Sequence record: OR844767
DNA length: 59,207 nt
Reading direction: 5' to 3' (one strand)
Source of the DNA: Escherichia phage ECO111 5-P
Shown: positions 6,029 to 6,758 of the stretch, in pieces
How positions within the stretch are numbered: position 1 is the stretch's first letter
Layout: the number at the start of each line of letters is the position of its first letter
The notes under the pieces: generated by a model
Database searches by the model: none
What the model was told of the DNA's origin: nothing
What the model saw: the letters and a program-made list of their open reading frames with translations, nothing else
Position numbers and translations under genes: made by a program

Positions 6029-6290
6029 GGTTACAAAAACGCATGATCGTCTTGTAACCCCTGAAAGCCGCGCCACGACTGGCCTTGACCATGTTTTGAG
6101 TACAGGTTACAAGTGCCGCTAACCCTATACATGTGTATAATGTGTGACGATGTGATCTACAATATACAACGTTTTATCTCTATTTCTTATCCTATTTACC
6201 TTTATTTCTTGTAACTTGTAACTAATAGTTGATAAAAGGTAGTAGAATTAATGATTTACGGATAGGTTACAAGTCGAATTTCCTGTAACC
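6029..6290. repeat. cluster of TTGTAAC/GGTTACAA inverted and direct repeats flanking an AT-rich stretch (candidate operators or replication origin)
   Basis: copies at 6029-6036, 6052-6059, 6105-6113, 6208-6215, 6216-6222, 6266-6274, 6283-6290; 6120-6260 is strongly AT-rich and non-coding. Confidence 0.5.
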
Positions 6291-6758
6291 AAGTTGTATC
6301 TTGTGTCTGATGCCTGCTACCGTGGACATGGGCAACACCAGCCCACCCGGTAAAACCGTAATACAATCAAACGATTGCGGGGCTAAAGCACCGTTCTGCC
6401 CGCACCCCCGGCACCACCGCGATTTGGAGCCTCCCTACGGGAGAAATTCGATTTTTCGGCTAAGTTATTGATTTCGCAAAGCGGGGCTATGGCAGATCCG
6501 GCCCATTTTCCGAGAATGCGGCTCTGCGCACCCCCGGGCCGACCGACAGCCGGGCAAGTACCTTTTTGAAAGCGTGACCGTAATTCTTCCTCAGCCGTCC
6601 GCCACGCCACGCAAGATAGATCGTAATAGGTAGGCATACCTTGCCCCAAAATAGCCCCGTCTGCCCCCCGTAGCGGTCGAAATAAGGGCATACAATAACG
6701 CCCCGTCACACCATATAACATGGGATACCATAGAAATGGGGATAGATAGCCATATACA

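Follow-up and report, generated by a model that had tools for sequence, protein, structure and literature searches.

The replication initiators of the Staphylococcus aureus pathogenicity islands (SaPIs), Rep and PriRep5, are superfamily 3 (SF3) helicases, fused in the case of PriRep5 to a primase, in which a C-terminal winged helix reads iterons; the respective origins consist of 6-12 iterons that are located just downstream of rep and flank an AT-rich center, with at least two iterons in opposite directions, and the specificity differs among related elements (PMC9371898). Here we analyze a locus with a similar organization, a field of TTGTAAC heptamers at positions 6029-6300 of the genome of Escherichia phage ECO111 5-P (sequence record OR844767), a complete Chi-like phage genome (Chivirus, Casjensviridae) of 59,207 bases that is referred to below, in its entirety, as the window. 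Comparison of this locus across the family leads us to consider it probable that the field is the replication origin of the phage, of the iteron type, and the heptamers appear to be recognized by the C-terminal domain of the primase-helicase that is encoded upstream.

By analogy, the SaPI origin is the closest described system. The window has 7-8 heptamers in the same geometry and with the same gene-to-origin order; both an array of 6-12 iterons downstream of the putative initiator gene and opposite orientations flanking an AT-rich center are found. The differences are that the repeats of the window are heptamers whereas those of the SaPIs are penta- or hexamers, and that the window is a 59-kb virulent-type enterobacterial cos phage whereas the SaPI is a satellite. 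Moreover, the putative origin of the window adjoins the cohesive-end site (cos), and a variable helix-turn-helix (HTH) cassette may separate gene and origin. The searches gave no detectable sequence match or close fold match to a SaPI Rep chain, and the DNA-binding domain is likened to it by layout, not by descent.

Three other systems offer partial parallels. The alpha protein of P4 unites a primase, an SF3 helicase and, at the C-terminus, a winged helix that binds the origin at short repeated sequences (Yeo et al. 2002, cited in PMC2777425). The same arrangement of primase, helicase and C-terminal repeat reader in a single polypeptide is proposed for the window. P4 needs two separated repeat clusters in cis, ori and crr; the window, in contrast, has a single cluster, with the other four exact TTGTAAC copies isolated at 9908, 10655, 49316 and 50115, and a P4-type bipartite origin was rejected, as no second, separated cluster was found elsewhere in the genome. 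Furthermore, the P4 primase domain is not known to be of the PrimPol kind, and the matches listed by the fold searches included none to the P4 domain. In the archaeal plasmid pRN1, the gene for a small DNA-binding regulator (orf56) immediately precedes a prim-pol/SF3 helicase gene (orf904), the product of which has a winged-helix domain, and the two are transcribed together, and the region 3' of orf904 is needed for replication (PMC2777425, PMC4234260); iterons could not be found in this plasmid, and the identity of the origin-recognizing protein was left open (PMC2777425). The order in the window is alike, with a small putative regulator gene (2737-3018) that overlaps the primase start codon at 3015 (ATGA), followed by the primase-helicase gene and the field, except that iterons were found in the phage only. 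In lambdoid phages, the iterons and the DNA-binding domain of the initiator O change together, giving rise to replication specificity types, and an AT-rich stretch adjoins the iterons. Close relatives of the window likewise differ in iterons along with the DNA-binding domain of the proposed initiator, and here too an AT-rich stretch lies alongside. However, in lambda the iterons form part of the O gene itself, and the helicase is the host DnaB, brought in by O through P, whereas the proposed initiator of the window is itself a helicase and primase, and its iterons are outside the gene.

This proposed initiator is an 860-residue protein encoded on the plus strand at 3015-5597, with PrimPol, PriCT_2 and DUF5906/SF3 helicase domains (Pfam PF09250, PF08707 and PF19263, respectively; PHROG 1156, 'DNA primase'). 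In a sequence search against solved structures, the only match was that of residues 485-670 to the helicase region of the NrS-1 primase (PDB 6k9e). An SF3 (D5/NrS-1-like) helicase domain, with or without a fused primase, is expected of a self-loading SF3 initiator, and this protein has both parts. The heptamers begin 432 bp past the stop codon of this gene; in relatives without the HTH cassette, the field starts ~70-110 bp past it.

Six of the heptamers in the field are exact, those at 6030 (-), 6052 (+), 6106 (-), 6209 (+), 6216 (+) and 6266 (-), all within 243 bp, and two have one mismatch, CTGTAAC at 6283 (+) and TTGTATC at 6294 (+). The genome-wide count of TTGTAAC/GTTACAA is not unusual (10 exact copies in the window, a number reached in 3 of 100 shuffles); with ~0.02-0.03 copies expected per 348 bp, the Poisson probability of a cluster of at least six is ~1e-12. 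Along the plus strand, the field consists of a distal inverted pair, GGTTACAA-N15-TTGTAACC (6029-6059, centers 22 bp apart), which relatives have in their own motif; a single iteron, GGTTACAAG, on the minus strand (6105-6113); a tandem direct pair, TTGTAAC-TTGTAAC, on the plus strand (6209-6222), invariant in TTGTAAC phages (hereinafter type A) and present in own-motif version in nearly all relatives; and a proximal cluster (6265-6300) of GGTTACAAG (-), nine bases, CTGTAACC (+) and the degenerate TTGTATC (+), at which relatives have 3-4 sites. The orientations are, therefore, minus-plus-minus, AT-rich DNA, plus-plus, AT-rich DNA, and minus-plus-(plus). In a comparison of five type-A phages whose flanking DNA has diverged, 46 of the 56 heptamer positions are invariant, compared to 43 of the 265 other positions (Fisher P = 3e-21), and the single iteron is preserved in all five; such invariance amid diverged flanks indicates that the heptamers are functional sites. 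No conserved open reading frame (ORF) was found within the field.

Between the outer sites, GC content drops to 25-35% across ~6130-6260. By nearest-neighbor energies, this stretch includes the two least stable 40-bp segments of the genome (6174-6213 and 6218-6257) as well as its least stable 100 bp (6158-6257), which lie 5.8 standard deviations under the genome mean and which we propose as the DNA-unwinding element. The plus strand of this element is pyrimidine-rich at 6165-6208 and purine-rich at 6223-6262, with the tandem iterons as an interruption. The palindrome TATACA-TG-TGTATA (6126-6139), a possible melting nucleus, is located ~15 bp past the single iteron, and a TATA(C/T)AT element is found at this position in relatives whose iterons are of other types. 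The sequence-only reading that preceded this work had described seven heptamers flanking an AT-rich, unwinding-prone stretch, and this description is borne out both by the sites (six exact TTGTAAC plus CTGTAAC, 6030-6289) and by the duplex stability of 6158-6257, the lowest of any 100 bp in the genome. Its coordinates for the distal pair are exact, whereas the second pair was placed one base off in start and spacer and should read GGTTACAAG at 6265-6273, a 9-base spacer and CTGTAACC at 6283-6290. The extended -10 promoter element that it saw in TGTGTATAAT (6132-6141) has to be dropped: the TATAAT at 6136-6141 belongs to the palindrome, is preceded by G-T-G in violation of the TGn rule and has no -35 element at 16-18 bp. 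A consensus promoter scan of 5500-7800 yielded 0 sigma-70-like sites against 3.0 expected.

For comparison across the family, the segment that runs from the primase gene up to cos was taken from 25 loci of Casjensviridae, and 7-mers were counted without a preset motif. In most of these loci, the 7-mer that occurs most often from the primase stop codon to cos was the phage's own repeat; it was not in three distant ones, Salado, Redjac and pPM_01, and for Salado and Redjac the repeats were instead read off the sequence. The type A repeat, TTGTAAC, is shared by the window, Chi, SeF6b, Seifer, BP12C, Smarc6, FSL SP-088, sal2 and BPS4, and CTGTTAC (type B) by FSL SP-030, FSL SP-039 and MET_P1_122_58; AACTGTWAC occurs in two metagenomic phages, TTGTTAC in SAP012, a PibeRecoleta-like phage, PIN2 and Salado, TTGTAAT in Enc34 and KPN U2874, CTGTCAC in Xylella phage Sano, CCCTAAG in nine copies in Pectobacterium phage MA12, and GGTCCGA in 11 copies in Burkholderia phage AH2. 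Across most of Casjensviridae, from Salmonella phages to MA12, the sites keep one order and orientation, namely an inverted pair, a single site, ~100 bp of AT-rich DNA, a tandem direct pair, ~40 bp and an inverted cluster. Within one phage, all copies of the repeat alter together, and this concerted change argues that the reader is a protein whose specificity evolves with the repeats.

As judged from ~30 relatives, the type of the repeat tracks solely the last ~140 residues of the primase-helicase, an exclusive co-variation. This C-terminal domain (residues 715-860, encoded at 5157-5594 on the plus strand) is a predicted winged helix and the proposed iteron-recognition module. Across types A and B, the N-terminal and helicase parts of the protein are 96-100% identical, in contrast to 62-65% over the last ~136 residues. 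In DNA alignment, the window and FSL SP-030 are mostly 91-100% identical over 1-5180, apart from a patch of 74-92% around 2290-2990, fall to 24-69% from 5185 (primase residue ~723) to ~6320, and are again 95% identical from there to cos. Similarly, in the Klebsiella phages KPN U2874 (TTGTAAT) and PIN2 (TTGTTAC), the primase gene is followed by the field without an intervening gene; their identity is mostly 87-100% (dipping to 78-83%) as far as primase residue ~708, drops to 37-82% (mostly 37-67%) across the C-terminal domain and the field, and returns to 95% near cos. The two mosaics, with breaks at residues ~708-723, are independent and set in unrelated backgrounds. With respect to its fold, a Foldseek comparison of the C-terminal domain model with PDB and BFVD gave only weak winged-helix matches or homologous primase C-termini, and there was no P4 alpha or SaPI Rep chain among the matches listed, so that we claim no homology to the respective domains of P4 alpha and SaPI Rep. 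A protein search with the C-terminal domain alone returned three proteins, and the full-length query was needed.

The correspondence extends to individual residues. Within the predicted wing hairpin (residues ~797-815), the residues V802, K804 and G806 vary in step with the bases at positions 5 and 7 of the repeat. From the training loci, a rule was derived for the hairpin ...LG(F/Y)xP(G/A)G-x1-x2-x3-x4-x5..., according to which x1 = V with x5 = G/N corresponds to TGTAAx, x1 = L with x5 = D/E corresponds to TGTTAC, and x3 = C in place of K corresponds to a final T. Predictions for ten unseen homologs were fixed before their DNA was fetched, and the dominant repeat was forecast correctly in 10 of the 10 loci, with a nominal chance of ~7e-5 that overstates independence because several of the test loci are related to training loci. 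Altogether, 29 loci are cleanly partitioned by the wing residues, and the single phage that combines V with D carries both TGTAAC and TGTTAC. The sharpest pair consists of the window (VLKFGG, seven TGTAAC) and L157, a Salmonella contig (VLCFGG, ten TGTAAT and one TGTAAC), in which the C-terminal domains are 88% identical and the change from K to C in the protein accompanies the change from C to T in the repeat.

Other candidate readers were considered and rejected. The last 72 residues of the small regulator encoded upstream of the primase gene do not differ between types A and B. For the small terminase subunit, all 189 of 189 residues agree between type A (FSL SP-088, BPS4, Utah and PK4) and type B (FSL SP-030 and MET_P1_122_58) phages. 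As for the adjacent HTH protein, TTGTAAC phages carry at least three unrelated or distantly related alleles or a mere remnant: the window-type form has 108 residues, the Chi-type form 95 residues with no detectable similarity to it, and the BP12C-type form 113 residues, whereas in sal2 (L134, 2830-3260) the cassette looks decayed, with a longest ORF of 50 residues plus BP12C-type-like fragments, beside an intact iteron field (seven TGTAAC and four TGTAAT). Moreover, five relatives (L007, L010, L011, L140 and L141) have a full field without the HTH gene. From this distribution, the HTH_37 gene is best regarded as lying outside the origin machinery. In a genome-wide scan for 150-bp tiles common to two CTGTTAC genomes and less than 88% identical in three whole TTGTAAC genomes, three strongly diverged segments emerged, the module exchanged with the repeats, a tail-fiber-region segment and an HNH-endonuclease insertion, along with a few short, weakly diverged stretches. 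The HNH insertion (FSL SP-030, 53751-54800) is missing in the CTGTTAC phages S.Ent 1-35-3, Season12 and ER19, and the tail-fiber-region segment (FSL SP-030, 36801-38100) is 83% identical in the CTGTTAC phage STP-3 and 96.5% identical in SEP13, a phage without a CTGTTAC field. Of the candidates examined, the primase C-terminal domain is the one left after the exclusions, and its assignment as the probable reader rests on these together with the recurrent breakpoints and the prospective test.

Several considerations weigh against an origin recognized by the primase-helicase. The support for the origin is all comparative, and binding of the primase could serve another purpose, such as autoregulation. 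The GC skew shows no origin signal; the cumulative skew tracks the direction of transcription and has a local maximum at 5617, where two genes converge. The C-terminal domain physically adjoins the field, and some of the co-variation is therefore expected from linkage alone; the genome-wide exclusion covered one pair of repeat types only, and the ten test loci, several being kin to training loci, are not fully independent. Finally, specificity is tracked by residues of the wing, whereas the recognition helix would be the usual place for them.

It is conceivable, although in our judgment unlikely, that the C-terminal domain binds the heptamers mainly for a purpose other than the start of replication and that the true origin lies elsewhere. 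Such a purpose might be autoregulation or silencing involving the adjacent HTH gene, anchoring of the helicase for late rolling-circle replication, or coupling of replication to packaging at cos. The distal pair at 6029-6059 indeed sits where the HTH promoter must be, ~60-90 bp from the start codon, the whole field is just 230-500 bp from cos, and the skew is uninformative. Nevertheless, the relatives that have no gene beside the field retain its full layout, so regulation of an adjacent gene is not the conserved function; the sites bracket the least stable duplex, which regulation does not need; the genome has no second heptamer cluster; and the layout equals that of SaPI origins point for point.

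Somewhat less probable still is that the heptamers are bound by another factor, be it a protein of the host, another protein of the phage, or a small peptide or RNA that the field itself encodes, and that their match with the C-terminal domain reflects hitch-hiking of neighboring DNA in recombination blocks. The adjacency of the domain to the field and their exchange in a single block speak for such hitch-hiking, and the restriction of the genome-wide exclusion to one type pair and the modest fold evidence for DNA binding also leave room for it. Yet the breakpoints recur at the boundary between the helicase and the C-terminal domain in two unrelated backgrounds, despite an easy crossover point at the terminator behind the gene, and the HTH cassette swaps independently while the domain and the field stay (Chi vs the window). 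Furthermore, the wing residues gave the repeat type in all ten unseen loci, including one with an 88%-identical domain; a host factor is at odds with the different repeats of same-genus relatives (the window and FSL SP-030 for Salmonella, KPN U2874 and PIN2 for Klebsiella), and a field-encoded peptide with the lack of a conserved ORF in the field.

A third possibility arises from the chromosome ends. Experiments on phages chi and Utah have established the 12-base 5' overhang GGTGCGCAGAGC (PMC4342425, PMC5374247). Its reverse complement, GCTCTGCGCACC, is found at 6521-6532 of the window (cohesive-end site on the minus strand), where contigs of relatives end, so that, compared with the published map, the window is circularly permuted and runs in reverse. 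This places the heptamer field 230-500 bp in from the left chromosome end and a short way downstream of the primase-helicase gene; the cohesive-end site is not a part of the putative origin yet fixes its position at this end. The cosB of lambda, next to cosN, is an array of repeated sites that face both ways. The closeness of the field to cosN (6521-6532) makes a cosB-like array of terminase recognition sites a serious rival, overlooked by the sequence-only reading, and this likeness speaks for it; however, the small terminase subunit is the same across TTGTAAC and CTGTTAC phages, the 220 bp between the field and cosN as well as the overhang are conserved regardless of the heptamer type, and the module exchanged with the repeats includes no packaging gene, all of which renders recognition of the heptamers by terminase very improbable.

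Least credible of all, and hardly worth retaining, is that the adjacent XRE-like HTH protein uses the heptamers as its operators, set around divergent promoters, as suggested by the start of its gene 58 bp from the first heptamer, by the inverted repeats typical of operators and by the TATAAT at 6136-6141, given that the same TTGTAAC accompanies window-, Chi- and BP12C-type proteins or the sal2 remnant alike, that the five relatives listed above combine a full field with the absence of the gene, and that no sigma-70-like promoter was found in 5500-7800. Of the two functions that the sequence-only reading had left side by side, origin or operator, the former is thus upheld by sites that flank the most meltable stretch next to the primase-helicase gene and by the co-variation of the repeat with the C-terminal domain in ~30 relatives, whereas the latter falls with the unrelated HTH alleles that share the same repeats and with the full fields that have no intervening gene.

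Taking the heptamer field to be the replication origin, we infer physical binding, melting, helicase loading and the start of replication at this site. The injected chromosome would circularize at cos, whereupon the PrimPol/SF3 protein would bind TTGTAAC via its C-terminal winged helix; the oppositely oriented sites flanking the AT-rich stretch would position helicase rings there, probably two hexamers. The AT-rich stretch, as the least stable duplex of the genome, would then melt, the SF3 helicase would encircle the single strands, the PrimPol domain would prime, and the phage DNA polymerase I (encoded at 56742-58814) would extend the primers.

The surroundings of the field contain additional conserved signals. 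Between the field and cos, a perfect core consensus of the integration host factor (IHF), AATCAAACGATTG (WATCAANNNNTTR), and a conserved hairpin, CTCCC-TAC-GGGAG, at 6365-6377 and 6431-6443 are kept in relatives and appear to be cos-associated. On the other side, at the right chromosome end, the 19-mer ACGCACGCCGCGTATATCA is present in four copies (6770, 6843, 6891 and 6950; span 6770-6968), 240-450 bp from cos, and a related copy, GATACACGTCGCGTAT, lies at 5988-6004 beside the HTH start. The 19-mer is kept across heptamer types (L001, L002, L008 and L011) and is therefore read by something conserved; the copies at 6770-6968 are possibly the real packaging recognition site, read by the small terminase subunit (gene at 53845-54414). 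The 14-mer AAAGCGGGGCTATG beside cos gave 120 mostly chance matches in viral contigs, of which L021 alone is relevant.

Between the primase-helicase gene and the field, a bidirectional intrinsic terminator (5609-5629), kept in relatives, is common to the primase operon on the plus strand and the HTH gene on the minus strand. The latter (5645-5971; HTH_37, XRE-like, Pfam PF13744) encodes 108 residues. In the regions between the HTH start and the first iteron (5972-6028 in the window; 3760-3835 in L001), there are uncertain, allele-specific candidate operators; that of Chi is the palindrome ATAACAAATTTGTTAT, and that of the window, CACGTCG-N8-CGACGTG (5993-6014), is doubtful as the HTH operator, since it is not conserved in SeF6b, the HTH protein of which is 73% identical. 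The gene-free region that includes the field extends over ~1.1 kb (5972-7072); a scan of the whole window against Rfam at gathering thresholds gave no match and ARAGORN found no tRNA or tmRNA, so a known RNA gene does not explain this non-coding region.

The segment 5600-7800 matches 111 phage records. Chi-like Salmonella-phage sequence, at 95-99% identity, is also present in GenBank records named Staphylococcus phage SA1 (GU169904.1), Listeria phage LM 4-14-1 (OR848870.1/OR849326.1), Enterococcus phage Efm 3-10 (OR844954.1/OR844947.1) and Staphylococcus phage SA 1298 Kay (OR850235.1), which probably reflects contamination or mislabeling. HNH-endonuclease insertions are present or absent among otherwise near-identical phages: the one in the window (56101-56900) adjoins the DNA polymerase gene, and a second one occurs in FSL SP-030 (L150, 3751-4800) and some relatives.

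The Chi-like phages of Casjensviridae are widely isolated, flagellotropic and considered for biocontrol, and we found no description of a replication origin for the family in the searchable literature, coverage of which is incomplete. The present analysis yields a concrete candidate origin (5973-6330), a probable reader domain and a residue-to-base rule, and corrects a tempting mis-annotation, in that the heptamers belong neither to the neighboring 'repressor' nor to the packaging enzyme. Most likely, the field is, by analogy, an iteron-type origin of an already known kind, akin to those of SaPI Rep and P4 alpha. The related phages provide a natural series for the study of DNA recognition by SF3 helicase initiators and could support minimal replicons or orthogonal-origin phages.

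The more interesting part is the exchangeable combination of C-terminal domain and iterons, with its simple wing code. We tentatively raise the idea, for now more doubtful than not, that the domain and the iteron field constitute an exchangeable 'replicon specificity cassette'. The base read at repeat positions 5 and 7 would be set by a code of two or three wing residues, no fewer than five specificities would be in circulation among Chi-like phages that are nearly identical and share their hosts, and the diversity would perhaps be driven by conflict and not by simple drift. The conflict may involve co-infecting phages that compete for initiators, or escape from satellites or defense systems that hijack or sense the origin. 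If this idea is true, origin specificity would be an immunity-like trait of these phages, and the wing code would allow that specificity to be re-engineered.

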